Notes under the pieces: generated by a model
The model's input: only the letters and a program-made list of their open reading frames with translations
What the model was told of the DNA's origin: nothing
Database searches by the model: none
DNA from: Thermomicrobiales bacterium
GTDB lineage: Bacteria; Chloroflexota; Chloroflexia; Thermomicrobiales; UBA6265
DNA length: 44,382 nucleotides
Assembly: GCA_033813515.1 (NCBI GenBank)
Contig: JAPXRQ010000003.1
Location: forward strand, 1-44,382
Direction of reading: 5' to 3'
In this document: one piece after another, positions 8,515 to 28,679 of the stretch
Numbering within the stretch: the first letter of the stretch is position 1
Layout of the letters: each line of letters begins with the position of its first letter
Made by a program: the position numbers and the translations under genes

Positions 8515-9405
8515 GTGGATGATCAGCGCTTTGATCGATTTGCGCGTCTGTTCGGTCGGCGACACTCTCGCCGTAAAGCCATCGCTATCGCATTGGGGGC
8601 AACCGCCGGCATCGTCGGTGTTCAACGCGAGCGGGCTGAAGCCGGCACACCCTGTGTGCTGACTTGTCCGCCCAACGTCATCACGGATTCGCAGCCTGGC
8701 CTGTGCAGTGCGGTCGTCAACTACACCGCCCCCGCACCGATCGGCACCTGCGGGATCGTCATCTGCGATCCGCCTGCCGGATCGGTATTCAATAGCGGTG
8801 TCCCGGGCGAGACGCTGGTGACCTGCATTGCCGGCAGCGCGACTTGCTCGTTCCTTGTCACGGTCACCGACGCCGAACTGCCAATCATCACCTGCCCGGC
8901 CAATATCGAACTCGAATCGGCCGATCCGATCGCGGTCGATTACACGCCGACCGCCAGCGACAACTGCCCAGGTGTGACGACGTTCTGTAATCCGCCAAGC
9001 GGATCTGAATTTGGCCCAGGCATGACCGAAGTCGTCTGTTCCGCGCTCGAGAATGCACCGGATCAAAGCACAGTCACTTGCTCATTCAACGTCACGATCA
9101 CTGCACCTACACCAACCCCGACCGAGCCGCCCCAGGCCGGACCGACGTCCGTCCCGACCGATGTCCCCTCGACCGAAGTGCCAGCCACCGAGGTTCCCAC
9201 GGCGGTCGATCCAACCGCCATTCCAGGCGATCCAACCGCCACCACTGCCCCTGTCAGCGAGTTGCCCAACACCGGCGCCGGAGCAGGAGACCGTGGCTCG
9301 GGCATGCTGCTGCCACTGGCGATTGCCGGTGCGGGCGCGGCGGCAGTGGCACGGTTGGGCATGCGAGGCAAGGAAGCATCTGCGTCACCGGATATGAACG
9401 AGTAG
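8515..9405 (+). CDS. HYR-domain surface protein with twin-arginine-type leader and LPNTG sorting signal (paralog 1)
   Basis: GTG start. Leader MDDQRFDRFARLFGRRHSRRKAI. HYR-like block ITCPANIELESADPIAVDYTPTASDNCPGVTTFCNPPSGSEFGPGMTEVVCSA...CSFNVTI. Pro/Thr stalk, then ELPNTGAG followed by a hydrophobic stretch and RLGMRGK. Confidence 0.8.
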   Translation: MDDQRFDRFARLFGRRHSRRKAIAIALGATAGIVGVQRERAEAGTPCVLTCPPNVITDSQPGLCSAVVNYTAPAPIGTCGIVICDPPAGSVFNSGVPGETLVTCIAGSATCSFLVTVTDAELPIITCPANIELESADPIAVDYTPTASDNCPGVTTFCNPPSGSEFGPGMTEVVCSALENAPDQSTVTCSFNVTITAPTPTPTEPPQAGPTSVPTDVPSTEVPATEVPTAVDPTAIPGDPTATTAPVSELPNTGAGAGDRGSGMLLPLAIAGAGAAAVARLGMRGKEASASPDMNE

Positions 9406-9454
9406 GCATTGGTGCAATTGGCCGGATGATTTCTGGCCGGGGAGGTTTGGGACG

Positions 9455-10372
9455 GTGGAATCGCAGCGCATGGACAATCTGGCCAGGGCACTTGGCGGCC
9501 GCAGGAATCGGCGGCAGGCCCTGGCAATCATCGGCGGCGCGGCGGTGGCGTCTGTGCCGCTTGCACGCGCAGATGCCAACACGGTGACTTGCGCCATCAC
9601 CTGCCCGGCAACTGGTTTCGGGTATGCCTCTGGTGGCACCTGCACCTCGGCACTCAACTTCGTCAATCCCGCCGATAACGGGTTCTGCGGCCAGGCGCCT
9701 ACCATTACCTGTGTCCCCAGTGCGACCGATCAGCTTGCGATTGGCGATGGCTCGGTCACCTGCACCGTTGACCAGTTCCCGGCATCCCAATGCTCGTTCA
9801 CCTATTTCGTCTATGACATCAGCGATTACACCCTGACCTGTCCGGCCGACATCAGCATCACCGCCAATGTGCCGACAGCCGTTGGCTACGGCGATCCAAT
9901 CCTCGGGCAGGAGTGCGGCACCGTGATTGGACCGTACTTCTCCTGCGATGTGCCAAGCGGCGAAATATTCCAGTTGGGAACAACCCCGGTCAATTGCTCC
10001 GGCATGCTGCCGGGCGGCAAGGGTCAGCAGATTCCAACCTGTTCCTTCAATGTCACCCTGACCCCGGAGCCAGCCACGGCCACCCCGACCGAGCCGCCCC
10101 AGGCCGGACCGACCTCCGTCCCGACCGAGGTTCCCGCAACCGAAGTGCCGGCGACTGAGGTGCCCACGGCTGTCGATCCCACCTCGATCCCGGCTGATCC
10201 AACTGCCACCACCGCGCCCGTTACCCAGCTGCCGAATACCGGAGCCGGTTCGAACGGATCTGGTGCGGCCAGCAAGCTGATCCCGGTGGCCGCCTTTGGT
10301 GCCGGCGCGGCCCTTCTGGCCAGATTGGGGCTGCGTAACCGCACACCATCAGCAGAAACGGGCGACGACTAA
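9455..10372 (+). CDS. HYR-domain LPNTG surface protein (paralog 2)
   Basis: GTG start after GGGGAGG. Leader MESQRMDNLARALGGRRNRRQAL. LTCPADISITANVPTAVGYGDP...CSFNVTL, then QLPNTGAGSNGSGAASKLIPVAAFGAGAALLARLGLRN. Confidence 0.8.
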   Translation: MESQRMDNLARALGGRRNRRQALAIIGGAAVASVPLARADANTVTCAITCPATGFGYASGGTCTSALNFVNPADNGFCGQAPTITCVPSATDQLAIGDGSVTCTVDQFPASQCSFTYFVYDISDYTLTCPADISITANVPTAVGYGDPILGQECGTVIGPYFSCDVPSGEIFQLGTTPVNCSGMLPGGKGQQIPTCSFNVTLTPEPATATPTEPPQAGPTSVPTEVPATEVPATEVPTAVDPTSIPADPTATTAPVTQLPNTGAGSNGSGAASKLIPVAAFGAGAALLARLGLRNRTPSAETGDD

Positions 10373-10408
10373 CCTGCACCGACCCTGGAGCTTCGTCGAA
10401 CCGGGTAA

Positions 10409-10437
10409 TTGACGGTATAGGTCAAACGGCCTAGGAT
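10409..10437 (+). promoter_or_regulatory. Candidate promoter TTGACG-N17-TAGGAT
   Basis: Read directly, upstream of paralog 3. Confidence 0.4.
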
Positions 10438-10526
10438 GGCGTAAGTACCTCGCCCCCCCGATTTTGCATACCGTCGCGCCGGGTTTGTGCTGCCAGTCTT
10501 TTGGTACGGCAGGGAAGGAAGCCAAT

Positions 10527-11462
10527 TTGGATTCGCAACGACTGGACAACCTCGCCCGATCCCTCGGCGCCCGCAAGAATCGGCGGCAAACGCTGGCCAT
10601 GCTCGGGGGAGCGGCGGCGGCGGCCATTCCCATCACCCGGGCCAGCGCAGGGGGCCAACCCGCCTGCTCCATGATCTGCCCGACCTACTCCTACGGTTAT
10701 GCCTATGGAGATACCTGCACTGCCAACCTGGACTTCGTTTACCCGGTCGCGATTGGCGATTGCCTGGCGCCGGAGGTCGTCTGCATCCCGGACATCACCA
10801 CCGATCTCGGGATTGGAAACGGGACTGTGAACTGCTCGGTGACAAGTAATCCGTATGTGAACTGCCAGTTCGGATACTCGGTCTATGACCTCAGCGATCT
10901 CGTCCTCACCTGTCCGGCCGATATCAGCATCATCGCGAACGAGCCAACTTCGGTGCCTTTCGGCGATCCCGTTCTGGCCACCGAATGCGGATACAACTAC
11001 GGAAGTAATGCAAACTGCGATGCCACCAGCGGCGATGTGTTCAATCTTGGGACGACGCTGGTTACCTGCACCGCCATTTTGCCCAGCGGCAAGGGTCAGC
11101 AGATTCCAACCTGTTCGTTCAACATCACCCTGACTCCGGAGCCAGCCACGGCCACCCCGACCGAGCCAGCCACGGCCACCCCGACCGAGCCGCCCCAGGC
11201 CGGACCGACATCCGTCCCGACCGAGGTTCCCGCAACCGAAGTTCCGGCGACTGAGGTGCCGACGGCGGTCGATCCGACCTCGATTCCGGCTGATCCAACT
11301 GCCACCACCGCGCCCGTTACCCAGCTGCCGAATACCGGAGCGGGTTCGAACGGATCTGGTGCGGCCAACAAGCTGATCCCGGTGGCGGCCGTTGGCGCCG
11401 GTGCGGCTCTCCTCGCCCGCCTCGGCCTTCGCAAACAGGCAGACACAGAACCAGTCGAGTAA
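10527..11462 (+). CDS. HYR-domain LPNTG surface protein (paralog 3)
   Basis: TTG start at 10527, 7 nt after GGGAAGGAAG, gives the conserved leader LDSQRLDNLARSLGARKNRRQTL. The track ORF starts earlier, at 10464. Same HYR, stalk and LPNTG layout, with an extra PEPATATPTE duplication. Confidence 0.8.
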   Translation: MDSQRLDNLARSLGARKNRRQTLAMLGGAAAAAIPITRASAGGQPACSMICPTYSYGYAYGDTCTANLDFVYPVAIGDCLAPEVVCIPDITTDLGIGNGTVNCSVTSNPYVNCQFGYSVYDLSDLVLTCPADISIIANEPTSVPFGDPVLATECGYNYGSNANCDATSGDVFNLGTTLVTCTAILPSGKGQQIPTCSFNITLTPEPATATPTEPATATPTEPPQAGPTSVPTEVPATEVPATEVPTAVDPTSIPADPTATTAPVTQLPNTGAGSNGSGAANKLIPVAAVGAGAALLARLGLRKQADTEPVE

Positions 11463-11487
11463 CACGAACCAGACAGACTCGAAGCAC

Positions 11488-11534
11488 CGGTGGGTGATGG
11501 AATGAGCAATCGTTCCCGCACCCACCGTTTTTTT
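11488..11534 (+). terminator. Rho-independent terminator after paralog 3
   Basis: Arms cggtgggtg / cacccaccg with a 22-nt loop, followed by seven T. Confidence 0.7.
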
Positions 11535-11546
11535 CACGCGGAGTTA

Positions 11547-11575
11547 TTGACGCTCTGTAACAACCCCAGTACGAT
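11547..11575 (+). promoter_or_regulatory. Candidate promoter TTGACG-N17-TACGAT
   Basis: Read directly, upstream of paralog 4. Confidence 0.4.
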
Positions 11576-11668
11576 TTCGAACGGTTCTCGATCTCCCGAT
11601 CAATGGTGATGGTCCGCTCCGCGGCGGATCGAGTTGTGTGTGTTTGCCGGATAGGGCAATGGAAGGCG

Positions 11669-12565
11669 ATGGGTTTGGACAATCAGCAATTTGATCGATT
11701 GGCCCGCATGTTGGGCAGACGGCAATCTCGCCGCAATGCGATCACGGTCATCGCCGGCGCAGCTGCTGTTGCCGCTGTTCCTGCCTCGCGCGCTCGTGCC
11801 GGCAATGAGGTCTGCCTTCTTGCCTGCCCAGACACAACCTTCAGCTACGTGTCCGACGGTACGTGCGAGATTGCTGCCGACTACATCCTGCCAACTCCGA
11901 ACGCCTTTTGCGAGACCGATCCCAACATCTTTTGTGACACCGCAGTTGGAGATCCTCTGGGACTCGGTGAGCACCTGATCTCCTGCTACATCCCTGGCCA
12001 GGAATCCTCCGACTGTTCCTTCTACTACTACGTCTATGACAACAATCCCGACTCCCTCATTTGTCCGGAAGACGTCACCATGACGGTCGATGGCCCGACG
12101 GCAGTTACCTGGGATTCCCCATGGTGGGGCACGGCCTGCACAACCTGGCTTGATACCTGGATCTGCGATCACAACAGTGGCGATGTCTTCCCGATTGGCA
12201 CCACGACAGTTACCTGCACCCCGGATTTCCAGCCATCGGGGAAGGGTCCGGACAACTGCGTGTTCAACATCACGCTCAATCAAACCGTTCCGACTGCCAC
12301 AGCGACCGAGCCGCCCCAGGCCGGACCAACTTCCGTCCCGACCGAGGTTCCCGCAACTGAAGTGCCGACAGCGGTCGATCCGACCTCCATCCCGGCTGAT
12401 CCAACTGCCACCACCGCTCCCGTCACCCAGCTGCCCAACACCGGTGCTGGCTCGAACGGATCCGGTGCGGCCAGCAAGCTGATCCCGGTCGCCGCTGTCG
12501 GCGCCGGTGCAGCCCTCCTCGCCCGCCTCGGCCTCCGCAAGAGCACTGCAGACGCCGCCGAGTAG
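11669..12565 (+). CDS. HYR-domain LPNTG surface protein (paralog 4)
   Basis: ATG at 11669 after GGAAGG gives MGLDNQQFDRLARMLGRRQSRRNAI. LICPEDVTMTVDGPTAVTWDSP...CVFNITL, then QLPNTGAGSNGSGAASKLIPVAAVGAGAALLARLGLRK. Confidence 0.8.
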   Translation: MGLDNQQFDRLARMLGRRQSRRNAITVIAGAAAVAAVPASRARAGNEVCLLACPDTTFSYVSDGTCEIAADYILPTPNAFCETDPNIFCDTAVGDPLGLGEHLISCYIPGQESSDCSFYYYVYDNNPDSLICPEDVTMTVDGPTAVTWDSPWWGTACTTWLDTWICDHNSGDVFPIGTTTVTCTPDFQPSGKGPDNCVFNITLNQTVPTATATEPPQAGPTSVPTEVPATEVPTAVDPTSIPADPTATTAPVTQLPNTGAGSNGSGAASKLIPVAAVGAGAALLARLGLRKSTADAAE

Positions 12566-13835: not shown

Positions 13836-14600
13836 ATGTCGATTTCGCGAACAGCGTTAGTAACCGGAGCAGGGAGCGGCATAGGGGCGGCGATTGCGCA
13901 GGGTCTGGCTGCGGATGGGCATCGGGTGATCGTCACCGATCTCGACCTGACAGCGGCCGAACAAACTGTCACGGAGATTGCAGCCGACGGGGGCATGGCA
14001 ACGGCCGAGGTGCTCGATGTCGCTGATCCAGGCATGGTGCGGCTGGAGATCGAACGAGTCGGTCCGCTGGCGGTGCTGGTCAACAATGCGGGCCTGCAAC
14101 ATGTCGCCCCGCTGGACACCTATCCGCTCGAGATGTGGAATCGGCTCATGGCCGTCCTCCTGACCGGGCCATTCCTGACTGCCCAGGCCGCCCTGCCTGG
14201 AATGCGTGCGCAGAAGTGGGGCCGGATCATCAATATCGCGAGTATCAATGGCAAACGCGGCGATCCCGGCAAGGCAGCCTATTGCGCCGCCAAGCACGGT
14301 GTGATCGGTCTGACCCGAACTGCGGCCCTGGAGGCAGCCGCCGACGGCATCACCGTCAATGCGATCTGTCCGGGCTTTGTCGACACCCCGCTCACTCGTG
14401 GTCAGTTGGCCGATCTGGGCGCACTGCACGGGATCCCGCCGGACGAGGTGATCCAGCGCTTCTTCCTGCCCCGCATGCCGACGGGTCGCCCGGTGGAGCG
14501 GGAAGAGGTGGCGGGATTGGTCCGTTATCTCGCCTCGGACGCCGCTGCCAGCATCACCGGCCAGGCGATCAACATAGACGGCGGCACCGTGATGGTCTAG
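13836..14600 (+). CDS. Short-chain dehydrogenase/reductase, 3-hydroxybutyrate dehydrogenase-like
   Basis: ATG at 13836 after GGTGGA. TALVTGAGSGIGAAIA (TGxxxGxG), NNAG, and a catalytic YxxxK in AAYCAAKHGV. The track ORF starts at 13725 with a non-homologous extension. Confidence 0.85.
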   Translation: MSISRTALVTGAGSGIGAAIAQGLAADGHRVIVTDLDLTAAEQTVTEIAADGGMATAEVLDVADPGMVRLEIERVGPLAVLVNNAGLQHVAPLDTYPLEMWNRLMAVLLTGPFLTAQAALPGMRAQKWGRIINIASINGKRGDPGKAAYCAAKHGVIGLTRTAALEAAADGITVNAICPGFVDTPLTRGQLADLGALHGIPPDEVIQRFFLPRMPTGRPVEREEVAGLVRYLASDAAASITGQAINIDGGTVMV

Positions 14601-14614
14601 GAGGCGGTTGGCGG

Positions 14615-14860
14615 TCCGCGCCCGCTTTTTGCGCCGATTCGTAGCGGCGATCGTCAGATCGCCCTTCCTTCCAACTCCGGTCCCGATGGAATGCACACAT
14701 CCCGGCCACCAAACCGACCCGTCCGCATCCCGAACGACGCATCGTAGGGCGGATCCCCCCGTGGTCCGCCGCAGATCTTCGCCAAACCCGCTCGCACGCG
14801 GATACCATCGTCTCCGATCACCCAACCCGGCCGACGGCAACCATTCGGCGGGCACAAGGC
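14615..14860. repeat. Approximately 245-bp noncoding repeat, copy A (directly 3' of double-propeller gene 1)
   Basis: It aligns by eye with 18484..18729 at roughly 80% identity with short indels. Long identical blocks include gcggcgatcgtcagatcgccc and tctccgatcacccaacccggccgacggcaacc. Frames are not conserved between the copies. Confidence 0.8.
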
Positions 14861-14866
14861 CTCACC

Positions 14867-17788
14867 CTACGGTTCTGGCGACGCGATTGGGGTACCCGGT
14901 CCTTCCCTGGCTTCAACCGGACCAAGCACGGTCAACTGACCCGACTCTGTCGTGCACAGAATCACCCCGCTCGGCCCGACCGGGAAGAGGACATCGGAGC
15001 AATTTTGACTGTCCAGGGCAAAGGTCCAGAGCACCTGGTGCGTCACCGCATCCCATCCCTCCAGGACTTCATCACCGATGGTCTCTGTACCCCAGTTCAT
15101 GACCACAATCTGGTCCCATTCCGCGAGATAACCGATGACGATTCGAGGTACGTCATCTTTCTGTTGCCAGATCATGGAACCATCTACGAGCGAGAACCAG
15201 GCGACGGCGCAGCACTGCTCGGTTATGGGAACCGGCGTGCCCACAAGCGACGACTTGCTGGCCGCAAAGTAGAACGAATCCCCTCCGGTCAGAACCGGAT
15301 ACTGACCCAGGAGTGCATCGGTGGACCAGATTTCGCTTCCGTCCCTAGCCGACCAGAGTGCCAATGTCTCGGCCGGCATTTCAGCGCCAACCGGATAACG
15401 GGATATCACGACCAGCGGCCCGCGCTCAGTTGCGACGCTGTAGGCCGCGATGAACTCCTCAGGCGGGACGATCTCCAGCAGGTTACGGCTCCAGATGACC
15501 TCACCAGTGGCAATGTCCAATGCTGTCAAAGTTGCGGTCAGATAGTCGGAAACATAGACGGTCTCCCCATCAGACGTCACTATCGGACCGCGATCTTCCC
15601 GATTGAACATGCAGGCATTGCAGGTCGGCTCTATCGTCAGTCCTGGCGCCAGGACACGATCGTAGTCGTACGCCCATCGTTGCTGGCCGGAGGAGAAATC
15701 GAGCGCAGCGACATGTCCCGTTCGATCGCTGACAAGAATCGTATTCCCGGTGACATTGACACCCAGCTGACCCCAGGCATCCGGAGCGGCGAATGTTGCG
15801 TCGGACAGTTTCACGATTCGACCATCTGCTGAAGCGAGCACTGCTACCCGCAATATCGTGCTGTCGAACCTGTCCTGGACAAGGGTAACGACGCCGCTGC
15901 TGGTAACCATGTAGGGCGCGAATGTGGATATCTGCGTCTGCCAGATGAGGTCGCCGCTGCCAAGGTCGCGGGCCATGAGGTATGTGGTGCCATCAGCTTG
16001 CGCAGAACTCGTGGAGTAGACGTTGTAGCGATAGACCGTAGCGAACGGATCGTCGGTTTGGATTGCGTTGCTGTCAGCAGCCCAGATCGGCTGGTAACTG
16101 GCGTCGCTGATTGGCAACCCACGGATCTGGCTGCCACCGGTTGCATCGCCATTGACCTGATATGGACCCGGATAGTCATCTGCAGCAACAGGCGAGGCAC
16201 TGACCGTCCTGGTATCAGATGGACTGATTCGCGCAACAACAGGTCCGTCCGATCCTCCCCAACAGACAGCCAATCCATCCGAACTCAACGGAAAGGTAAT
16301 TTGGCAGGTGTTCGCACCCTGCGACACTTCCCATTTGATGTCACCGGTGGTCGCATCCAGTCCCCACGTCCGGCGCGGAGCATCGTACTCCTGGACGACC
16401 ACAGTCTTATCTGATGCCAGGTATCCGATAACTGAGCCAGCATTGATCGGCTGGAACCAAAGCAACTCGCCAGTTTTGTTCTCGACCGAAGCGACTGCAT
16501 ACTGATCGCCAACCATCATTTGGCCAAACAGCTGGTGTCCATCCGACGCCGCAACCATGGACATCAACATAGTGGAACTTGAAAGTGTGTCGCCTGATGC
16601 CCCACTAACGACAAACTGGCTTGGAAGCTCTGAAGTGAAGTCGGCAGTTGTTTGCTGGACGGCATAAACCACATTGTCATCGGCCGTGGTCACAACTCCA
16701 AACGGCGCTATGACAGCGGTGGAGCTATGCACATCCTGCGCAGACTGAACCCACCGTTCGTCTCCTGAGGCCGCATCGATCGCCCGGATCGTCATCGTGG
16801 CAGCATCAGCCACAAACACAGTGTTCGCTGTGATGGCAACCGGCATGAAGTAGTCCGTGCGCAACTGGCAGTCTGATTCGTCGAAAGCCCAGCAGATTCG
16901 ATCTTCGAACCCGGCTGCAAGTTCTCGTTTGAACGAGTACAACCACCGCTCGGCTCCGGTAGCCAGATCCAGCGCCACGATCAGTCCAGATCGATCGACT
17001 AGGTATAGATTGGCTCCCTCAACAATCAAGTGATACCCATAGGCATCCGCCTTGCCGTCGAAAACGCGGTCCACTTCCCAAATGGTTTTCCCGGTATCGC
17101 GATCGAGCAACGCGATGTCATATGGAGGATTCTTGGCATTAGTCGGAGTCGACTTCGCATTCTCAGGAACGATCAGCGCAACCACACCTACCGATGTTGC
17201 GGCCAGTTCCGACCACGACGAAACCGACCTTTGCCACATCACAGTGCCATCGGAAGCATCGAACGCAGTTAGCGGACGGTAAAAAGCGTCTGAACCGTCA
17301 TCGTGAATGGCATAGAGATATTCGCCGGACATCAGCATCGGGTAATAGGACGCAGCCGCCCCACCCGGAAGCTGCCAGGCCATTTCCGGCGTGCCCGAAA
17401 CTGGTGCTGGACCCGGGAACTGGTTGTCCTGGGCCGCCGTCCCGCCGTATTGCACCGTCGGCAGGTCCTCCTCCGGCGCAGTAATGGCAGTCGGAGAGGC
17501 CGGAGCGCTCGATCGCTGCGTAGTGCTGGCCAGACCGCCGATCATCGCCAGCAGCAATGCCGCCACCGCCGCTAAATCCAGCAGCTTCCGCCTGTTCGAG
17601 ATCGATCGCATCCGGATCACAGGCCGACCAATCTCGGCCGGTCGCGCGGTCACAACGGCGACAGTCTCGCCGCTCATCGCTGCAGCCAAAAATGCCGCTT
17701 CCAGCCGGTTCGCAAAGACCGGACTCGGATCGGTTGCTGCCTCAAATCGGCTCAGTGGTCCCGTGTTTACCGCGAGTTCATTTGCCAT
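14867..17788 (-). CDS. Membrane-anchored double PQQ-like beta-propeller protein, putative anti-sigma/sensor partner of the upstream ECF sigma
   Basis: 973 aa. A short cytoplasmic N-terminus is followed by one TM helix (LLDLAAVAALLLAMIGGLAS). Two roughly 430-aa ectodomain modules are rich in x-A-(L/I/F)-D-x-x-(T/S)-G-x-x-x-W repeats, for example LTAFDASDGTVMWQ and IVALDLATGAERWL. The start overlaps the sigma gene by 22 nt. Confidence 0.75.
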   Translation of the reverse strand: MANELAVNTGPLSRFEAATDPSPVFANRLEAAFLAAAMSGETVAVVTARPAEIGRPVIRMRSISNRRKLLDLAAVAALLLAMIGGLASTTQRSSAPASPTAITAPEEDLPTVQYGGTAAQDNQFPGPAPVSGTPEMAWQLPGGAAASYYPMLMSGEYLYAIHDDGSDAFYRPLTAFDASDGTVMWQRSVSSWSELAATSVGVVALIVPENAKSTPTNAKNPPYDIALLDRDTGKTIWEVDRVFDGKADAYGYHLIVEGANLYLVDRSGLIVALDLATGAERWLYSFKRELAAGFEDRICWAFDESDCQLRTDYFMPVAITANTVFVADAATMTIRAIDAASGDERWVQSAQDVHSSTAVIAPFGVVTTADDNVVYAVQQTTADFTSELPSQFVVSGASGDTLSSSTMLMSMVAASDGHQLFGQMMVGDQYAVASVENKTGELLWFQPINAGSVIGYLASDKTVVVQEYDAPRRTWGLDATTGDIKWEVSQGANTCQITFPLSSDGLAVCWGGSDGPVVARISPSDTRTVSASPVAADDYPGPYQVNGDATGGSQIRGLPISDASYQPIWAADSNAIQTDDPFATVYRYNVYSTSSAQADGTTYLMARDLGSGDLIWQTQISTFAPYMVTSSGVVTLVQDRFDSTILRVAVLASADGRIVKLSDATFAAPDAWGQLGVNVTGNTILVSDRTGHVAALDFSSGQQRWAYDYDRVLAPGLTIEPTCNACMFNREDRGPIVTSDGETVYVSDYLTATLTALDIATGEVIWSRNLLEIVPPEEFIAAYSVATERGPLVVISRYPVGAEMPAETLALWSARDGSEIWSTDALLGQYPVLTGGDSFYFAASKSSLVGTPVPITEQCCAVAWFSLVDGSMIWQQKDDVPRIVIGYLAEWDQIVVMNWGTETIGDEVLEGWDAVTHQVLWTFALDSQNCSDVLFPVGPSGVILCTTESGQLTVLGPVEAREGPGTPIASPEP

Positions 17789-18369
17789 GATGGGCTCTCC
17801 TCTGATTCCCTGATTGCGTTCCGCATCGCGGTCCTCTCCCGGGACAACATCGACTCGGTTGCGTGTTCGGACTTGCCGATCATCGCGGCGATATCCCGCA
17901 CGGCATAGCCATCCAGATAGCGCAGCAGCAGCACGGCCTGGTACTGAACCGGCAGCACCGACAGCAGCTGGAAAAGTTCGTCCCGATCGGCAATTTGATC
18001 AAACTCGTTGCTGAAATCGGGAATCTGTTCGGCAGTGAGCGTCCATTCGGATCGGAGGTCAGCTCGAGCCGCCTCCGCCCGGTAGTACATGAGCACCTTG
18101 TTGCGGGCGATACCAATCAGCCAGGCTGTTGGATCGGAAACGCGATAGTGATCGCGCGGCCACTGAATCGCAAACGCAAGAAAGGTCTCGCTGGTCAGGT
18201 CCTCGGCAACGGCGGCATTGCCAGCAACCCGGAGCAGGATGAATCCGTACACCTGCGGGAGTGCCGTCCGGAAAATCGCCGCCAGGGCATTTGCGTCGTC
18301 GCGGGGCACAGCATCACCTGCGTCCGCCTGCGCATTGGCCGTGATTTGCGTTCCACCCTTCGCCCTCAT
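17767..18369 (-). CDS. ECF-type RNA polymerase sigma-70 family factor (sigma 1)
   Basis: Region 2 (VYGFILLRVAGNAAVAEDLTSETFL) and region 4 (LLLRYLDGYAVRDIAAMIGKSEHATESMLSR). The ATG at 18369 is chosen by length comparison with the paralogs. The track ORF starts at TTG 18417. Confidence 0.85.
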   Translation of the reverse strand: MRAKGGTQITANAQADAGDAVPRDDANALAAIFRTALPQVYGFILLRVAGNAAVAEDLTSETFLAFAIQWPRDHYRVSDPTAWLIGIARNKVLMYYRAEAARADLRSEWTLTAEQIPDFSNEFDQIADRDELFQLLSVLPVQYQAVLLLRYLDGYAVRDIAAMIGKSEHATESMLSRERTAMRNAIRESEESPSWQMNSR

Positions 18370-18483
18370 ACAACAAGATTGCGCGACACCAGCCAAATCC
18401 GTCGCCCAACGCAGCAATTCGTTGTGGAGATTTCGTACCGGCCATTCGTCACGGCGGTCCGTACGGGCGATTCATGACACCGA

Positions 18484-18729
18484 ACCGCGCCGGCGATTTT
18501 TGGACCGATGCCTGCCGCCGATTCTTGCGGCGATCGTCAGATCGCCCATCCATCGAAGGCATACGCACAAACCGGCCACCCAACCCATCCACCGGCAACC
18601 CCAACGACGCATCGTAAGGCGGATCCCCCGTGGTCCGCCGCCGGTCTTCGCCGCACCCATTCGCATGCGGTAACCACGGTCTCCGATCACCCAACCCGGC
18701 CGACGGCAACCAGTCGACGGGCACAAGGC
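18484..18729. repeat. Approximately 245-bp noncoding repeat, copy B (directly 3' of double-propeller gene 2, upstream of sigma 1)
   Basis: See copy A. It ends 12 nt from the stop codon at 18741. Confidence 0.8.
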
Positions 18730-18740: not shown

Positions 18741-21629
18741 TCACGGATCGACAGGCGCGAAAACGGCCAACCTCCCATCGGCATTGGTGCAAACGACTTT
18801 TCCAGATGCGTCGATCGGAAACTCAACCTCCAGGCACTGCTTGCCATCGGTCACAAACATGAACACCTGCTCATGTGTCGTCGCGTCGATCCCGAGAATC
18901 GTTGTTCCGCTGGCTCCGTCAACACCATCAACCCCGTCGATTGATGACGCCGCCATCGGGCCGGCCGAGTTCGTAATCAACACATTGCTGCTGGTCAATA
19001 TCCCGATCACCGTTCGCGGCAACTCGTCCCCTGGCGTCCAGATCAATGATCCGTCGGCAAGTGAATACTCAGCGAGAAAGCAGCAAATCTCGGAATCTGG
19101 TGACGTGGCAGGAGTGCCGGAGATACGGGATTCTGACAGTGATGCGTAAAACGTTCCGTGATCCGTCACGGCCAGACCACTGACAATCGAAAAGTCGACT
19201 TTTTGCCAGACCGTCGAACCATCGTCCGAAGACCACAGGCCCAGAATCATTCCTCCATCGCCCTTCGCTCCGGATACGGTCATGATGCCGACCAGTGGAC
19301 CTTCCGGTGTTGCTGAAATCCACGCGTTGAAAAAGTCATCTGGCGGTACGAGGTCCAAAGATGATCTCTGCCAACGCATGTCTCCTGTCGAAAAGTCCAG
19401 TGCCGTTGCCATGCCACTGAGCACATCGACCATGAATACCGTCCGGCCATCAGTCGAGAGATATGGGGCAAACCCGGCTCGCGGGACACAGATCTCACAG
19501 GTGGCGTAGTCGTTCATGCCCGGACCCAGCACCCGATCAACGGTGTTTTTCCAAAGCAGCGTGCCCGTGCCCATATCGATCGCCGCTATCTGCCCCGAAA
19601 CGTCGCTGAACAAGATGGTCGTTCCGCTCACAATCAGAAAGGTGCCCGAGGAAGTTTGGGGAGGTAGCACTGAAACATCGCTCGCCAATGACCTACGCGA
19701 GCCATCCAGGTTGAACAAAGCCACCCGGAGTACAGAAGAGTCGGCGGGATCTCTGACCAGGGTCACGATGCCCTGACTCGTCACAACATACGGGACATTC
19801 TTCGGAATCGGCTGTTGCCAAAGGGCCTCACCGGACGACAAATCCTGCGCAGTCAATTGGACATCGCCATGCGCATCGGCGGCCGTGGTCGAATACAGCA
19901 CCGTGCCGAAAGAAGTTGCGAATTGATCACTGGATTGCCGTGACCAATCCTGCACCCACGTCGCCGAATACTGGCCACTCGTGAGTGTCGGACCAGTTAT
20001 CTGGCCGGAACCGGTCGGATCGATGCTGGAGTCAATCGCATCTGCCGAAGGGTTCTCGTCCGGGGTCGACACGTCGGCACGCGCAGCAGAGCCATACATA
20101 CGAGCCGTGTTTTCAACTCCAAGGCAAACAAACGAACCGTCATCGGCGATAGGCAATGACAGGATGCAATTGAGCGATTCAGGAATCTCCCAGAGCGTCT
20201 CACCTGTTTCCGGTCGAAACCCAATCGTTCGCAGTCCGTCACGCCCCGACGCAAGAATCAGCGCATTGTCTCGCGACGAGTAACCACGCAGGTATGCCGG
20301 GAAATCGCTTTCCCATTTTTGCTCGCCATTGTTCAGATCATAGGAGCGAACCTTCGAATCATCACCAATGATGAAATTTACATAAAGATTCGATCCATCA
20401 GTCGAAATCGTGCTGTCGAACTCTCCAGAAAGCTGCCAACGTTCGGCCCCATCTGCAGAGTCGAAAACCTGCAGGACCATCACAGGAGCATCCTGCGAAC
20501 CTCCTGAGGAACCCAATTCCGAAATCGAAACAATCTCAGGTGTCGTGGGCGGTTCTTCCGCCGTGGTAACGAGCACAACTCCGTGCGGAATGGCCACCGG
20601 AAGTGTGAATACATCAGCTGGGATCAGACTTCCCTGCGCCAATTGCCTCCATTGCTCAATCCCATCATCGATTCGCACTGCAACGATCAGGCGAGATCGA
20701 GGATTGAAGACATAAAGCAATCCTGATCCCAGCGCAGTATTCAAACGCACATTTGTATTCGAAGGATCAGTTGAAGCAAAGACCCAATTTTCGGAGCCGG
20801 TTTGCAGGTCGAACTTGATCACGTTACCCATGCGATCAGGCATATAGACAGCATTGTCATCAACAAGCATCCGGTGTGCAGAATCCAGTGACCAGTTCTG
20901 AAAGACACGTGTGCTTATCCAGATTGGCTCGCCAGTTTCTTTGTCCAGGAGTGTCACTGAAAACGGCGGTTGCAGAATGCCATCTCCGCCACCAGACGAA
21001 TAGACCCGCGTTGTCACGACTCCAGCGTCGGTCAGGATGAAGTCGACGGTGCTTGCCACCTCTGCCCGCCATCGTTCCGCGCCTGTGATGCGATCGTACG
21101 CAACCACCTGACTTGTGGTCAGTTTGTCTACCGGATGTTCCTGAACATAGACGAGATCGTCACCGAAGAACACAGGGCTTCTCCACACATGCGTGGCGCT
21201 CGGAAACTGCCAGTCTTCCTGTGGGTTCGCGCCGTTCGGGACACCACCGGTGTAATTCAGATCCCGGGCCGGTGATCCTCCAATCATTTGGATCGAATTG
21301 GCAGTCGACGGTGCATTAATGGTTGGAAACACGGACGAATCGGAAGTGTCCCGCCTCAGGCTGGATAGACCCGCCAGCGTCGCAATGAGCAGTACTGCCG
21401 CCGCCGCAATCGAAAGCATCCGATATCTCGTGGTGATGCTGGGTTGTTTCGATGTCCGCATAACCTGCCAGCCCGTCGGGACACCCCGAGCCGCACCAGC
21501 TCCGGATGCATCCGCCGCTCCCATTGCGCCGAGCATTTCTCCGCGCAACCGGCCGGCAAACCCCGCCTCGGGCTGCGCCGGACGATCCAGATCGGCCAGG
21601 GCCTGATCAATCAACTGCTCCGTCGTCAT
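18741..21629 (-). CDS. Membrane-anchored double PQQ-like beta-propeller protein, putative anti-sigma/sensor partner (paralog 2)
   Basis: 962 aa with the same layout. TM helix YRMLSIAAAAVLLIATLAGL. Repeats such as VVAYDRITGAERWR, VIKFDLQTGSENWV and IAAIDMGTGTLLWK. ATGA overlap with the sigma 2 stop. Confidence 0.75.
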   Translation of the reverse strand: MTTEQLIDQALADLDRPAQPEAGFAGRLRGEMLGAMGAADASGAGAARGVPTGWQVMRTSKQPSITTRYRMLSIAAAAVLLIATLAGLSSLRRDTSDSSVFPTINAPSTANSIQMIGGSPARDLNYTGGVPNGANPQEDWQFPSATHVWRSPVFFGDDLVYVQEHPVDKLTTSQVVAYDRITGAERWRAEVASTVDFILTDAGVVTTRVYSSGGGDGILQPPFSVTLLDKETGEPIWISTRVFQNWSLDSAHRMLVDDNAVYMPDRMGNVIKFDLQTGSENWVFASTDPSNTNVRLNTALGSGLLYVFNPRSRLIVAVRIDDGIEQWRQLAQGSLIPADVFTLPVAIPHGVVLVTTAEEPPTTPEIVSISELGSSGGSQDAPVMVLQVFDSADGAERWQLSGEFDSTISTDGSNLYVNFIIGDDSKVRSYDLNNGEQKWESDFPAYLRGYSSRDNALILASGRDGLRTIGFRPETGETLWEIPESLNCILSLPIADDGSFVCLGVENTARMYGSAARADVSTPDENPSADAIDSSIDPTGSGQITGPTLTSGQYSATWVQDWSRQSSDQFATSFGTVLYSTTAADAHGDVQLTAQDLSSGEALWQQPIPKNVPYVVTSQGIVTLVRDPADSSVLRVALFNLDGSRRSLASDVSVLPPQTSSGTFLIVSGTTILFSDVSGQIAAIDMGTGTLLWKNTVDRVLGPGMNDYATCEICVPRAGFAPYLSTDGRTVFMVDVLSGMATALDFSTGDMRWQRSSLDLVPPDDFFNAWISATPEGPLVGIMTVSGAKGDGGMILGLWSSDDGSTVWQKVDFSIVSGLAVTDHGTFYASLSESRISGTPATSPDSEICCFLAEYSLADGSLIWTPGDELPRTVIGILTSSNVLITNSAGPMAASSIDGVDGVDGASGTTILGIDATTHEQVFMFVTDGKQCLEVEFPIDASGKVVCTNADGRLAVFAPVDP

Positions 21630-22165
21630 CGCGTGCTCTCCTCCGGATCGAGATGCTGGCGCAGGCTGCGTCGGGCCCGGACCAAATGCGCCTCAATCGC
21701 GTGCTCGGTTTTGCCAGTCAGGGAGGCAATCGCACGGACGCTCAAACCGTCCGTCCATCGCAGCAGGATCAACAGCCGGTGCAAATCGGGCAGCGTATCG
21801 AGCGCGGCCAGCAAATCAGCCCGGTCGATTGCGGCGGCAATGCCATCCCGCGGTTCGACTGGCTCCGGAATGGCATCCAGATCCAGGCTCGCTCCTGTCC
21901 AGAGGGTTCGGTGATGATCGACGATCTTGTGCCTGGCCGTGCCGTACAGCCAGGCCATCGGCTGCTCGATCGATTTGCCGTCCGCAACCGCGCGGGACCA
22001 GGCCAGAAAGGTCTCCTGCGTCAGATCCTCCGCCACCGGGGCGTTGTGCCGGACCCGAAGCAGGATGTACCCATAGATCCGCGGCAGATACTCGGCCAGC
22101 ACCGCATCAACCGCAGCAGCCGAACTATCCGCGTGGATTGATTCCGATTGCCGCCGAGCAACCAT
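21626..22165 (-). CDS. ECF-type sigma factor (sigma 2)
   Basis: 179 aa. IYGYILLRVRHNAPVAEDLTQETFL and LILLRWTDGLSVRAIASLTGKTEHAIEAHLVRARR. GGAGGAGG lies upstream. Confidence 0.9.
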   Translation of the reverse strand: MVARRQSESIHADSSAAAVDAVLAEYLPRIYGYILLRVRHNAPVAEDLTQETFLAWSRAVADGKSIEQPMAWLYGTARHKIVDHHRTLWTGASLDLDAIPEPVEPRDGIAAAIDRADLLAALDTLPDLHRLLILLRWTDGLSVRAIASLTGKTEHAIEAHLVRARRSLRQHLDPEESTR

Positions 22166-22238: not shown

Positions 22239-23774
22239 TCAGGTCTCGGGCGTGGACGATATTGGGGTCGGAACGTAGTAGCCCAGCGAATTGCTCGCCG
22301 TCTTGTAACAGAGCAGGGACCCATCGGGATTAATCGGATACAGAATCCCGCAGGAGTCCACGTCCACCGTCGCAGTCACGGTCAAGGTGTCAGGATTGAT
22401 GACGCTTGCCAGCCCGTTCCAACTCTGGACAATGATCAGGTCCGCTTCTGCGAGATACAACTTCTGCCCGTCGATGGTGTCTGCGTTTACCTGTTGTTCT
22501 ACGAGGACAATGCCCGTAACCGCATCCACCACCAACGCCACATCTCCGCTGACCATCAGCACCCGCGTGCCGAGGGAAAGCGCCGACCAGGAATTCCCGC
22601 CATCGAAATCTCTAATCCAAACGATCGAGCCGTCTTTGGCGGAGAGCTGAACGACTGTGTCGGAAAGTGACGCACCATCGGTCGATTGGTTGGGATCTGT
22701 CCAAAGATTGGCATACAGCAAGGGACCAGCCGATGTTGCACCGAGCAAACTCGCCACGCGCAGAGACTGCATCGCCGAGTCTTCGTTCTGAATGACCGCC
22801 AGTGCATCTACCGACCAGATCTTGTGGCCGTCGGCAATGTCCAGGCTGGTGATGGTCATCTGATCGGCGTTGAACAGGAAGAGCGTCGTCTCGGACATTT
22901 CCATCCGGGAGGTGCAGTTCATGCACGCGCCTCCACCTGTCGTGGTGGGGGTGTATTGCCAGCGCTGCATGCCATTCGCGAGATCGATTCCGGCCGCGTA
23001 ACCCGTGGAATCGGCATAGAGAATGGTCGAACTGGAAACGGCAATTTGGTAGCGAAGCGTGTGCCGATAGGTCTCCGGCGATGACCAAATCGGCACTCCC
23101 GTCGTGTGATCCAGCAGGGCGATCCGCAGCCCTGTTCCACCTTGCCAATCGGGCACCAAAACCACCACACCATACCGCGTTGCGATCACCTGTTGGGAGT
23201 CGCTGATTGTCGCTCGCCAGCGCTCGGCACCCGTATCCGTTGAAAGTGCGATCAGATGCGCCGCCGTTCCAGAGGTTCCGAGCGGTTCGATTCGATAGAT
23301 ATTGGGACCGAAAAGAAGCGATTGATTGGCTGTGTCCGCCGAAGCATCGACCGACCACTGCAGCACATATGCGCCGTTTTGCGGAGCCGGACCCAGGACA
23401 TTGCTGGCAAGAATGTCGCTTGCCGTCATGCTCCGGGTTGCCAAATCAAACCCGGTCGGAACAGTCAGCGGACCGGCGATCAACTCCTCCGGCGCGGCTA
23501 TCGAATCCAGATCGTCTATCGGATCCTGGCTGGTGTTGATCCGCAATACGGATAGCAATGACAGCAACACAATCGCAGCAATCGCAGCCCATCGACCGAG
23601 TGTGGACCAGCCGCGTAAACCCGGACCGCTCGACTGCAATCTCCGGATCGGACGCTCTGTCATATCGATCTTTGCATAGACCGCCCGGAGTTGTTCATGC
23701 AGTTCGATCGATGGGGTTGCCACGTGGTCGAACTGGGCAAACGACCGTTCCATGTTTGGGAAATGCTCAGTCAT
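22239..23774 (-). CDS. Membrane-anchored single PQQ-like beta-propeller protein, putative anti-sigma/sensor partner (paralog 3)
   Basis: 511 aa. TM helix WAAIAAIVLLSLLSVL and one ectodomain module (LIALSTDTGAERWR, AAGIDLANGMQRWQ, ITSLDIADGHKIWS). ATGA overlap with sigma 3. Confidence 0.75.
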   Translation of the reverse strand: MTEHFPNMERSFAQFDHVATPSIELHEQLRAVYAKIDMTERPIRRLQSSGPGLRGWSTLGRWAAIAAIVLLSLLSVLRINTSQDPIDDLDSIAAPEELIAGPLTVPTGFDLATRSMTASDILASNVLGPAPQNGAYVLQWSVDASADTANQSLLFGPNIYRIEPLGTSGTAAHLIALSTDTGAERWRATISDSQQVIATRYGVVVLVPDWQGGTGLRIALLDHTTGVPIWSSPETYRHTLRYQIAVSSSTILYADSTGYAAGIDLANGMQRWQYTPTTTGGGACMNCTSRMEMSETTLFLFNADQMTITSLDIADGHKIWSVDALAVIQNEDSAMQSLRVASLLGATSAGPLLYANLWTDPNQSTDGASLSDTVVQLSAKDGSIVWIRDFDGGNSWSALSLGTRVLMVSGDVALVVDAVTGIVLVEQQVNADTIDGQKLYLAEADLIIVQSWNGLASVINPDTLTVTATVDVDSCGILYPINPDGSLLCYKTASNSLGYYVPTPISSTPET

Positions 23775-24331
23775 GATCGTGCTCCTGTCATTGGTCCCTG
23801 CTCACGAAGAGCCGCTCGCCCCCTCGCCAGAAGCGATTCGATGGCGTGTTCCGATCGGCCGAACTGTGCGGCCAGGTCCGCAACCCTTAATCCGTCGCAG
23901 TAGTGCAGGATGAGCACTGCTTGTTGCATCGGCGGCAACGGCGATAACAGGCGGCGCAATTCGTCGGCATCAAGAACACGGGCAAAATCGTGCTCTTCGC
24001 TCCTGCCAATGTCATGGTCGGGCCATGGATCGATCGGAACGGTCCGTTGCTGGTGACGGAAGTGATCGATCACCTTGTTGCGGGCGGTGCCAAAAAGCCA
24101 TGCCATGTGATCTTCGACTGCAGCACGTTTCGACTGAAGTACCTGCGCCAGGGCGATCATGGTTTCCTGGGTCAGATCCTCCGCCAATGCCCGATCGTTT
24201 CCCACCCGAACCAGGATGTAACCGAAAACTCTGGGAAGCGCGTGCTCGAGGAGATCAACAGCGTCGACCGCTTTGGTAGCCGTACCAGGCGCGTTCCGGA
24301 TATTGGGTATGACCGTCATGGACTGTGTCAT
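23771..24331 (-). CDS. ECF-type sigma factor (sigma 3)
   Basis: 186 aa. VFGYILVRVGNDRALAEDLTQETMI and LILHYCDGLRVADLAAQFGRSEHAIESLLARGR. Confidence 0.9.
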   Translation of the reverse strand: MTQSMTVIPNIRNAPGTATKAVDAVDLLEHALPRVFGYILVRVGNDRALAEDLTQETMIALAQVLQSKRAAVEDHMAWLFGTARNKVIDHFRHQQRTVPIDPWPDHDIGRSEEHDFARVLDADELRRLLSPLPPMQQAVLILHYCDGLRVADLAAQFGRSEHAIESLLARGRAALREQGPMTGARS

Positions 24332-24391: not shown

Positions 24392-24619
24392 GGAAAGGGC
24401 CATGTGGCAGAGATGCCACCTGTCGTCGAACTGACTTGGTGCTGTTCTCGAGAACGGAAGGCGGAAGGGGAACGAAAGAAGAGCATATTATCGTGACATA
24501 AAGTCTCTCATTTTCTAAATGTGTGAGGGTTCTCCAATGGTGCCGTTTTCCGCCTCAATTGCAAACACGTCTGGATATGCCGCGCTGTTCGCTTCTGGCG
24601 CCCCTTTTCCGCTTCCCTT

Positions 24620-24682
24620 TTACCTCCTACCTCTTTCCTCTTACCTCTTTCCTCTTGCCCCTTACCTCCTACCTCTTACCTC
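24620..24682. repeat. Nine tandem heptamers (TTACCTC CTACCTC TTTCCTC TTACCTC TTTCCTC TTGCCCC TTACCTC CTACCTC TTACCTC)
   Basis: Read directly. It abuts and overlaps the stop codon (24681-24683) of the minus-strand regulator gene. Confidence 0.9.
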
Positions 24683-25982: not shown

Positions 25983-26292
25983 GAAGGCCACCTCTTGCCG
26001 TGTGTGCCTGTAGTCGCTCAATTGTATGGGTGCTTGTACAGGTGTTGTCGCTGTCCGCCCAATCCCGGCACTGGCAGGATAGGGAGCGGTTCGAATCCGG
26101 ATGATGCGGAGTTGGGCGCCGAATGGGTCGGATCGGGGTGAATCGGCCACAGACGGAATCTGACTCCGGATCGACCGGATACCCAATTGCCAGCCCCCTC
26201 AGAAGCAGGATCACGATCAACAGCGCCGCCCGGGCGTGCTGTTCGGATCCCGCGCGGGCTGGTCTGGTTGCTCACATGACAGAGAGGACACC

Positions 26293-27963
26293 ATGCGTTT
26301 TGTTCAGATGTGTGTCGTGCTGGCGTTACTTGGCGTTTCCGCCTTGACCAGCCTGGCCACCGTTTCTGCCGCCAATTCCTGCACGATCGGCGGCATCAAA
26401 TACACCGTCACGATTAGCGGCTCCGGCACAATCAACGGCACTAACAATGCCGATGTCATCGCCGGCTCCAGTCTCGACGACAAGATCTTTGGCGGCGAAG
26501 GCAACGATGTCATTTGCGGCAACGGGGGCGCCGATACCATCGAAGGCGGCTCAGGCAATGACCTGATCAGTGGCGGCACCAACCGGGACTCCATCAAGGG
26601 CGATCTCGATTCCGACCGCATCTATGGAGGCGATTCCGATGACAGCCTTGATGGTGGCGACGACATCGATTACATCTTCGGCGAGGCCGGCAACGACACT
26701 CTGGTCGGCAACTTCGGCGATGATCGCCTCTATGGCGGAATCGGCAACGACCGTGTGTACGGCCGCACCGGCTTCGATTATCTGTACGGGGAGGATGGCG
26801 ACGACTACCTCTCCGGGGCCAGCGACAGCGATCTTCTCTCGGGTGGGCCAGGCAATGACACTCTGACCGATACCACCGGCGGCGTCTATGCCCAGGGTGG
26901 ACCGGGGAACGACATTATCACCGGCAGCACCGAAGAGAAGAATGCCCTCTATGGCAACGAGGGGAACGATGTCCTCGTTGCCCAGTCTCAATCGGTCGTC
27001 TTCGGCGGACCGGGGAATGATGATCTGACCGGCAGCGCTGAGGATGATTACCTGATCGGCGACGACGATGCCCCGGTGGAAGCAAGTGCAACCTTCTCAT
27101 CCGCCGCCGAAGGGAGCGATGGTAATGATGTTCTTCGCGGTGGTGCCGGCAACGACAAACTTCTCGGCAACGGCGGCGATGATCGCCTGGCCGGAGAGGA
27201 TGGCGACGATCGTCTCGATGGCCAGGATGGCAACGATACGTTGACGGGTGGTATCGGAAGTGACCTCCTCAATGGTGATGCCGGACTCGATCGCATCTAT
27301 GGTCAGGATGGCGATGACACCATCGATGGCGGATCCGATGCTGATCAGATCTCGGGCTCAACCGGTGATGACGATATCTACGGCAACAATGGAAGCGATG
27401 TCATCGATGGCGGCGCGGGTGCTGATTCAATCTCGGGCGACAGCGGCGATGATCAGATTCATGGTGGAACCGGAGACGATGAAATCTTCGGCGGAACTGG
27501 CGCCAATGTGATCTTTGGCGGTCCGAACGATGATGTCATTCAGGGCGGCAAGTCCATTGACCAGATTGATGGCGGCGCCGGTAACGACACTATCGACGGG
27601 TATGACGGTAACGACCTTCTTCTCGGCGGAGAATCCGGCATCGATACGATTGTCGGCGGCGATGGGGACGATCTGATCGCCGGCGGAACCGAAAACGACA
27701 TCATCAATGGTGGCTACGGCAATGACACCATCAATGGTGAACTCGGCGATGACAAGATCAACGGTGATACCGGCACCGACAAGATCCACGGGAACGATGG
27801 CAACGATGTTCTCCAGGGATCGGATGGTGAGAACGATCTGGTCTACGGTGATGCCGGCAACGACAAACTCGATGGCGGAGAAGGTCTCGGCGACTACTGC
27901 TCCGGCGGAACCGGCTCCGATGCCGCCGATCCCAATTGCGAAACAACCAACAGCATTCCATAG
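26293..27963 (+). CDS. Secreted calcium-binding repeat protein (RTX-like), paralog of 1581..3266
   Basis: ATG at 26293 after AGAGAGGA. Signal peptide MRFVQMCVVLALLGVSALTSLATVSA. The same VTISGSGTINGT entry motif and GGxGxD repeats, and the same C-terminal DYCSGG...C-E-T ending. Confidence 0.85.
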   Translation: MRFVQMCVVLALLGVSALTSLATVSAANSCTIGGIKYTVTISGSGTINGTNNADVIAGSSLDDKIFGGEGNDVICGNGGADTIEGGSGNDLISGGTNRDSIKGDLDSDRIYGGDSDDSLDGGDDIDYIFGEAGNDTLVGNFGDDRLYGGIGNDRVYGRTGFDYLYGEDGDDYLSGASDSDLLSGGPGNDTLTDTTGGVYAQGGPGNDIITGSTEEKNALYGNEGNDVLVAQSQSVVFGGPGNDDLTGSAEDDYLIGDDDAPVEASATFSSAAEGSDGNDVLRGGAGNDKLLGNGGDDRLAGEDGDDRLDGQDGNDTLTGGIGSDLLNGDAGLDRIYGQDGDDTIDGGSDADQISGSTGDDDIYGNNGSDVIDGGAGADSISGDSGDDQIHGGTGDDEIFGGTGANVIFGGPNDDVIQGGKSIDQIDGGAGNDTIDGYDGNDLLLGGESGIDTIVGGDGDDLIAGGTENDIINGGYGNDTINGELGDDKINGDTGTDKIHGNDGNDVLQGSDGENDLVYGDAGNDKLDGGEGLGDYCSGGTGSDAADPNCETTNSIP

Positions 27964-28027: not shown

Positions 28028-28062
28028 TCACCCTTCACCCCTCACCCTTCACCCCTCACCCT
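28028..28062. repeat. Five tandem heptamers (TCACCCT/TCACCCC alternating)
   Basis: Read directly, in the intergenic region between RTX-like gene 2 and sigma 4. Confidence 0.9.
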
Positions 28063-28066
28063 ATCA

Positions 28067-28096
28067 AACGACAGTTTTCGCCCACACCGTCCGACT
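28067..28096 (+). promoter_or_regulatory. Candidate ECF-type promoter AACGAC-N19-CGACT upstream of sigma 4
   Basis: AACGACAGTTTTCGCCCACACCGTCCGACT. The 9-mer TCCGACTTC (28090..28098) is also found upstream of sigma 2 (22189..22197, minus strand). Confidence 0.4.
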
Positions 28097-28118
28097 TCTC
28101 CTTTAATTGGAGGATCGG

Positions 28119-28679
28119 ATGGTGGCGGTTACGGGCAACATGGTGGCACCAGGCAAATTACGCCGGTTCGGGAAAGCAACGGATCAGGACCGCGAGCGCG
28201 CCGCCTTCCTGTCCGAAATGCTTCCCCGCATCTACGGCTACATTCTGCTCCGGGTCAATCGCGATCCAGGTATCGCGGAGGATCTGACCCAGGAAACCCT
28301 GCTTGCCTATACCCGGCAGCAGCAATCCGGTGTTGCCATCGCCAATCCCACGGCCATGCTCTTCGGGATCGCCCGGCATAAGGTGATCGATTGGTATCGG
28401 ACCCGCGTCATGCTCACCGTCGATGCGGACGAGACGCTCGGGGTCATTGATCCGGTCGATGATCTCGACCGGGTTCTGCAGCGGGATGAACTGCTCCGCT
28501 ATCTCGATCAACTCCCACCCGGGCAGCGCATGGTCCTCATCCTACATTACGCCGATGGCCTCAGTGCCGCCGAAATCGCCGCGCATCTCGGGAAGACCCG
28601 GGATGCCGTCGAATCGCTCCTCGCACGTGGCCGGCGTGCCATGCGTCAACTCGCCAGCAATCAGGGTGAAGCACGATGA
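28119..28679 (+). CDS. ECF-type sigma factor (sigma 4)
   Basis: ATG at 28119 after GGAGGA. IYGYILLRVNRDPGIAEDLTQETLL and LILHYADGLSAAEIAAHLGKTRDAVESLLARGRR. The track ORF starts at TTG 28107. Confidence 0.9.
   Translation: MVAVTGNMVAPGKLRRFGKATDQDRERAAFLSEMLPRIYGYILLRVNRDPGIAEDLTQETLLAYTRQQQSGVAIANPTAMLFGIARHKVIDWYRTRVMLTVDADETLGVIDPVDDLDRVLQRDELLRYLDQLPPGQRMVLILHYADGLSAAEIAAHLGKTRDAVESLLARGRRAMRQLASNQGEAR

Follow-up and report, generated by a model that had tools for sequence, protein, structure and literature searches.

The element of about 245 bp that follows two anti-sigma genes in the window (the whole 44,382-nucleotide stretch of DNA analysed here) is best read, with a probability of roughly 0.55, as a REP-tipped spacer between gene modules that has been homogenised by gene conversion. 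It is a non-coding repeat that is present in two copies, carries a REP hairpin at its distal end and bears signals of recombination, and we propose that it would end each double-propeller sigma/anti-sigma module of a tandem array, with a core of ~195 nt followed by a GTAG-type REP hairpin and then by 13-nt half-REP units. Homologous recombination (gene conversion) between the two direct copies, and between strains, would keep the element homogeneous, and strain-to-strain replacements of the sensor genes would end in the tract of homology that it provides. The copies would thus resemble each other far more than the genes in front of them do, since recombination homogenises them and no longer acts on the sensors and sigma factors, which have become too different; the sensor genes are probably selected to differ. 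Conversion alone would then presumably maintain the similarity of the two copies, and neither an RNA fold nor a coding constraint would be needed for it.

Sigma/anti-sigma modules and the two copies of the element

Three tandem ECF sigma/anti-sigma modules lie on the minus strand of the window, and a fourth lies on the plus strand at 28107-30283. The first consists of ECF sigma 1 (17767..18369) and anti-sigma 1 (14867..17788), a 973-aa protein with an N-terminal anti-sigma region and a double PQQ-like propeller sensor that is hypervariable between strains. The second consists of ECF sigma 2 (21626..22165) and anti-sigma 2 (18741..21629, 962 aa), also a double propeller, whose sensor has been replaced in a close relative as well (below), and the third of sigma 3 (23771-24331) and a 511-aa single-propeller protein. 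The sigma 1 ORF as listed begins at TTG 18417, but the relative's gene call and the pattern of conservation make ATG 18369 (MRAKGG...) the likely real start. The tail at 18370..18523 would contain the sigma 1 promoter; no common ECF promoter motif was found upstream of the four sigma genes. Two heptamer repeats are present near the sigma genes: CTTACCT is repeated ten times in tandem at 24612-24682 (purine-rich in gene orientation), directly behind the gene of an HTH-AAA regulator and ahead of sigma 3, and a CACCCTT/CACCCCT run lies at about 28030-28070, upstream of sigma 4.

Copy A of the element (14615..14860, minus strand) is the spacer behind the anti-sigma 1 gene and copy B (18484..18729, minus strand) is the spacer behind the anti-sigma 2 gene; no copy lies behind the single-propeller modules 3 and 4, so that within the window the element is found only behind the two double-propeller genes. 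The original prediction put the identity of the copies at about 80% by eye and described them as G-rich in gene orientation, and both statements hold: when aligned with MAFFT on the G-rich minus strand the copies are 84% identical (175 matches and 34 mismatches in 209 ungapped columns), with 14 gap columns in the core alignment that are due to one 1-nt and one 13-nt indel. The identity falls to 33–44% in the flanks on either side. The further claim that the element is far better conserved than the genes upstream of it is likewise correct, as the two anti-sigma proteins are only 30% identical and the two ECF sigma factors 42%. Among the long identical runs, which the prediction had also noticed, are the 21-mer hairpin run and a 33-nt run at 14810..14842 (minus strand; 18679-18711 in copy B), at which Logan contigs break and where the common unitig has the summed depth of the two copies. 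An 18-mer from the element has two matches in the window (0.04 expected), the 24-nt hairpin has exactly two in the 44 kb (0.01 expected), and a profile of the copies (nhmmer) finds only A and B in the window, with E-values of the order of 1e-68 to 1e-78 (8e-78 for A and 5e-68 for B).

The homology begins directly 3' of both stop codons, as predicted, with offsets of 6 nt (A) and 11 nt (B). At its distal end copy A is cut off where a convergent SDR gene ends (stop codon at 14600), and copy B extends into the region that precedes sigma 1, so the different surroundings that had been described for the two copies are borne out.

Absence of coding potential

The mismatches between A and B are distributed 9/13/12 over the three codon phases and so have no codon periodicity, the 1-nt and 13-nt indels disrupt every reading frame between the copies, and the in-frame continuation of the upstream gene is different in the two. 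The element is therefore neither a coding sequence nor a readthrough extension of the anti-sigma gene. It had been called non-coding before on the ground that small ORFs in the two copies are alike and then diverge, and we find that they agree for ~36 aa, up to the 1-nt indel. A search of 5.8 billion proteins with the six-frame translation of the element gave no match, although this search may be swamped by low-complexity words.

The REP hairpin, its tail and a RAYT-like gene

The hairpin at the distal end of the element, CGGCGATC-GTCA-GATCGCC, has a 7-bp stem and a 4-nt loop and is invariant in all four copies known (two here and two in the relative). GTAG-type REPs are defined by an unpaired GTAG tag that is followed by a short G+C-rich palindrome (PMC3733652, PMC2817692), and since it has both of these the hairpin fits that definition. 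The tag is GTAG in copy A (REP at 14641..14664, plus strand), in both copies of the relative and in all units of the metagenome contig L060 (below), and it is mutated to CTTG in copy B, where the same palindrome lies at 18524..18547 (plus strand). The part of the element between the copy B REP and the sigma 1 start (18370..18523, minus strand) is a tail of degenerate tandem half-REP units (GAATCGCCGGTACG) with a 13-nt periodicity; three are clear, at 18434-18472, and each is identical to the REP half-site plus tag at 11 of 13 positions. The same pattern of a REP followed by half-REPs is present on L060.

The arrangement that defines this family is a rayt gene with inverted REPs on both sides (PMC2817692). 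On L060 (1-1308), which contains a 24-mer identical to the element's REP, three plus three REPs are inverted around an ORF of 179 aa. The product of this ORF has an HVH motif and matches the NCBIfam model NF047646 (REP_Tyr_transpos, REP-associated tyrosine transposase) at E 2e-17, with 63 bits against a cut-off of 80, and Pfam Y1_Tnp with 22.1 bits against a cut-off of 23. The RAYT-like gene (151-690, minus strand) with REPs on both sides would make up a complete REPtron; the REP array to its right is made of G-rich units of ~78 nt and terminates in a long G run, and the putative start of a thyX-like gene may lie downstream of it.

The RAYT-like gene and the element co-occur in at least seven runs (X1, X2, X4, X6, X9, X13 and X17), and the spacers of the L060 REP array share their runs with the window genome. 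Another metagenome contig, L089, represents the organism of the window itself (with 98.9% identity to copy A), and L060 is from the same assembly. This co-occurrence in runs, which is the only link, suggests that the RAYT-like gene belongs to the lineage of the window genome, either in the same genome or in a sibling strain. To judge by its tag and palindrome and by these identical units, the terminal hairpin is a GTAG-tagged REP, of the family that the RAYT-like transposase of this lineage would serve; what counts against the link to this transposase is that both HMM scores are below the curated cut-offs and that the contig depths differ (4.8 for the RAYT contig and 14 for the window genome in X1, the ratio varying between runs). 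One further REP unit with different flanks is present on a contig of 4.5 kb whose depth matches that of the window genome, next to the two in the 44-kb window and at least six on L060. A scan of the metagenome contigs with the REP 19-mer GGGCGATCTGACGATCGCC gave more than 120 matches, of which only those on L089 and L060 are relevant; nearly all the others fall in a ribB coding motif or in terminators. The same 19-mer coincides with a common coding sequence for the ribB (DHBP synthase) motif ENEGDLTIA (loci L012-L131) and also occurs in unrelated terminator hairpins, so exact-match scans with it are misleading.

The REPs of the element resemble known GTAG REP/RAYT systems (PMC2817692, PMC3733652, PMC8266576) in having a unit of 24 nt in which a G+C-rich palindrome of 7 bp is combined with an unpaired tag, in the occurrence of the identical unit in inverted arrays around a Y1/HUH RAYT-like gene, and in their extragenic position 3' of ORFs, between convergent genes (copy A) and between unidirectional genes (copy B). 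They differ in that the copy B REP has lost its tag, and only the last ~25 nt of the element and its tail are REP; the core of ~195 nt lies outside the REP family. On this assignment the GTAG REP/RAYT family is now documented in an uncultured wastewater bacterium. By analogy with REPs elsewhere, the hairpin probably forms the 3' end of the mRNA, or stabilises it, between the modules.

A second GTAG-tagged palindrome, GTAG-GGCGGA-N11-TCCGCC, lies in REP orientation in the best-conserved, central block of copy A (14744..14770, plus strand), and its counterpart in copy B (18614..18639, plus strand) has the tag GTAA. In copy A it forms a direct repeat of 71% identity with the REP and has three mismatches to the half-REP 13-mer, which weakly suggests that it may be a diverged REP. 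Like BIMEs and REPINs (PMC2817692, PMC3116915), the element is thus a composite extragenic repeat around a REP and larger than a single REP, but those need alternating or inverted REPs in many copies, whereas the element has two copies, and its two tagged palindromes point the same way at a distance of 103 nt, with no single long hairpin and no excess stability.

Copy number and mobility

Exactly two copies of the core are present per genome in four runs in which the organism has a depth of 5–15x. The contigs in these runs that are at least 80% identical to the core are copies A and B only, and the depth of the 34-mer unitig shared by the copies is 25.6 in X1 (compared with 14.3 + 15 for the two) and 10 in X3 (compared with 6.8 + 6.0). 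There is no significant similarity between the core and the REP-array spacers around the RAYT-like gene, a search of the element for conserved terminal inverted repeats and target duplications found none, viral contigs and plasmids gave no match, and when 185,579 species genomes, a collection that excludes the source genome, were scanned by 20-mer there was a single chance match, in Nocardia, without the rest of the element. The core can therefore not be a generic dispersed repeat; such a repeat had been expected to have many copies in unrelated contexts, and both copies found here are behind double-propeller anti-sigma genes.

These counts also bear on the idea that all 245 bp form one non-autonomous mobile element (a PATE of the RAYT or IS200/IS605 type, or a MITE) that was inserted independently behind both anti-sigma genes. 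The genuine REP at its end and the possible second GTAG palindrome, in the same orientation, are reminiscent of the two ends of an IS200/IS605-type element, the lineage has its RAYT-like gene, and REPs and MITEs typically lie just past stop codons (PMC3733652). We nevertheless consider an independent insertion of the whole unit quite unlikely, given the lack of the terminal repeats and target duplications of a MITE or PATE, the lack of any likeness of the core to the REP spacers, the lack of matches beyond the two copies, the restriction of these copies to one context and one gene family (modules 3 and 4 are without the element) and the failure to see any pair of empty and filled sites. The small mobile repeat that the original prediction had among its candidates thus applies to the terminal hairpin and tail and does not extend to the core.

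Several other kinds of repeat were considered and set aside. Like an integron attC site, the element is a conserved imperfect palindrome after each co-oriented gene unit; unlike one it has no paired RYYYAAC/GTTRRRY cores (there is a lone GTTGGGT with no partner on the same strand), its units are two-gene modules of 3.9 kb, and no integrase domain was found in the scanned ORFs. The copies are not a template/variable repeat pair of a DGR, as the 34 mismatches fall on every base (A 9/5, C 7/8, G 8/9, T 10/12) and no RT was seen in the window. The GATC motif, common genome-wide, is not enriched in the element. An internal duplication of ~105 nt was not adopted, being significant only in copy B.

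RNA structure

The original prediction listed three conserved hairpins and named a structured 3'-UTR or sRNA as its first candidate. Two of the hairpins are present, the GGCGATC/GATCGCC hairpin as described and GGCGGA...TCCGCC with spacers of 11 and 10 nt and not 9 and 10; the third, whose arms were said to carry compensating changes, is unsupported by RNAalifold. Folding of the element is no more favourable than that of dinucleotide shuffles on either strand (MFE z-scores of 0.24 and 0.54). RNAalifold on the three full copies gave an unfavourable covariation term (+0.92), with three compensated pairs as opposed to about 17 broken ones, and the terminal hairpin as the only clean structure, and an Rfam scan gave no match either at the gathering score or at E<=1; the structure tests have low power, as they use only three to four sequences. 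There is thus none of the excess stability, covariation or family match by which a riboswitch, sRNA or attenuator might be recognised, and the structured-RNA reading is not supported.

A cis-acting RNA under selection, be it a structured 3'-UTR, an sRNA made from the 3'-UTR of the anti-sigma message, or else a leader or attenuator that governs read-through into the next sigma gene, would account for the position of the element directly after the stop codon in gene orientation, where it is predicted to be almost certainly co-transcribed with the anti-sigma gene, for the fact that homology sets in at the stop codon whichever of the four sensor alleles precedes it, and for a central block of ~40 nt that is nearly invariant in all four copies. 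Besides the folding, covariation and Rfam results, however, no terminator-like site was found in or beside either copy, copy A has no downstream gene to regulate, and the orthologous divergence of the 3' half of the element, about 6%, is that of the synonymous or background rate (about 5%), so that there is no sign in this small sample of extra constraint on that half. We regard such an RNA as decidedly unlikely. Short non-coding DNA can give the impression of being better conserved than its neighbouring genes without being a functional RNA, and gene conversion plus a REP are the likely causes of this impression.

Sensor replacement in a close relative

The protein collection contains only two homologues of each of the large anti-sigma proteins, and the corresponding Logan contigs (L003-L009 and L132-L137) are from one relative, which has the same array layout and is 95.0% identical in nucleotide sequence over the 5.3 kb of conserved parts. 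Its sigma 1 protein is 98% identical (dS 0.05). Its anti-sigma 1, on the other hand, is a 35%-identical allele and is split by a frameshift into 799 and 174 aa (L003 3169-3172, and also L004-L009); this split is real and not an assembly slip, since it is present in 12 contigs from many samples. Its anti-sigma 2 is a single-propeller protein of 534 aa, 32% identical to that of the window. Both propeller sensors have thus been replaced (32–35% amino acid identity) between two genomes that are otherwise about 95–98% identical (window 14867-17500 and 18741-21457 compared with L003/L004 and L132). The element follows both anti-sigma genes in the relative, so that four sensor alleles carry it. Between the 534-aa allele and the element there is a remnant of ~145 nt (L132 6725-6868), which encodes the end of a double-propeller ORF (...ISIVYMPPPSQ*) and is homologous to the end of the relative's own anti-sigma 1; it resembles the trace that a past replacement or deletion would leave behind.

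A profile of the identity between the window genome and the relative, in 60-nt bins over both modules, gives 91–100% for the tail, the sigma gene and the first ~60–100 anti-sigma codons, 37–68% for the sensor, 70–83% for the 5' half of the element and 85–100% for its 3' half. The breakpoints are sharp, one being after about 60–100 anti-sigma codons and the other within the downstream element, where the step between its two halves places the 3' end of the divergent tract. This by-product of the analysis, the full replacement of anti-sigma sensors between ~95%-identical genomes with the replacement ending in the element, is perhaps of more interest than the element itself. Low-coverage runs searched for more strains yielded only sequence near-identical to the window.

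Recombination within the element

Comparison of the four copies gives direct support, in a mosaic and in concerted evolution, to the last of the originally listed candidates, a region under gene conversion. In the 5' half of the element all four informative sites group the copies by genome, and in columns 147-168 all eight group the positional orthologues; this contrast of 4:0 with 8:0 (Fisher p about 0.002) requires that recombination broke within the element. In the relative, the upstream copy is moreover a mosaic around the REP (B-like, A-like and again B-like), and indels cluster there. Two observations could be turned against gene conversion as the preferred reading. The sharp onset of homology at the stop codon behind four sensor alleles could reflect selection on the sequence, and a single donor of both of the relative's cassettes could also give the pattern in the 5' half, where there are only four sites.

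The same comparison raises the idea that the element is kept as a dedicated 3' recombination anchor, a homology arm that, together with the conserved anti-sigma N-terminus, frames a swappable extracytoplasmic sensor cassette and lets divergent cassettes move between strains or modules, the ECF modules being retargeted by homologous replacement and REP/RAYT possibly promoting the breaks. The highly divergent tract ends within the element in both modules, the element is behind four of four sensor alleles, and the remnant of an older sensor 3' end still precedes the relative's upstream copy. Any conserved flank, without being selected, would give the same pattern, however, the comparison covers just two genomes, modules 1 and 2 have unlike 5' arms, which does not favour exchange between modules, and the reads contain no recombinant junctions, and so we think a dedicated anchor unlikely. 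Should the element be necessary for sensor exchange, it would provide a mechanism for the rapid re-targeting of envelope signalling.

A parallel to the element is the Neisseria Sma/Cla repeat, a conserved non-coding repeat downstream of pilE and pilS, which are variable copies of a surface gene. There too, a conserved non-coding tract right after the stop codons of very divergent paralogous or allelic genes coincides with the end points of recombination. The differences are that both anti-sigma genes here are complete, have their own sigma factors and are predicted to be expressed, with no silent cassettes, and that the element is, from sequence comparison, a candidate recombination tract only.

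Returning to gene conversion, there are hints of it elsewhere in the region. Four tandem paralogous units of ~1.07 kb lie at 9100-12540, one of them with a weak match to the HYR domain; one pair is 92% identical over 272 nt and the others are 67–69% identical, which suggests that gene conversion is active there too. The window also encodes two large RTX calcium-binding repeat proteins (1581-3266 and 26236-27963), and at its end (43361-44382) there is a highly repetitive coding region with a period of 30 nt.
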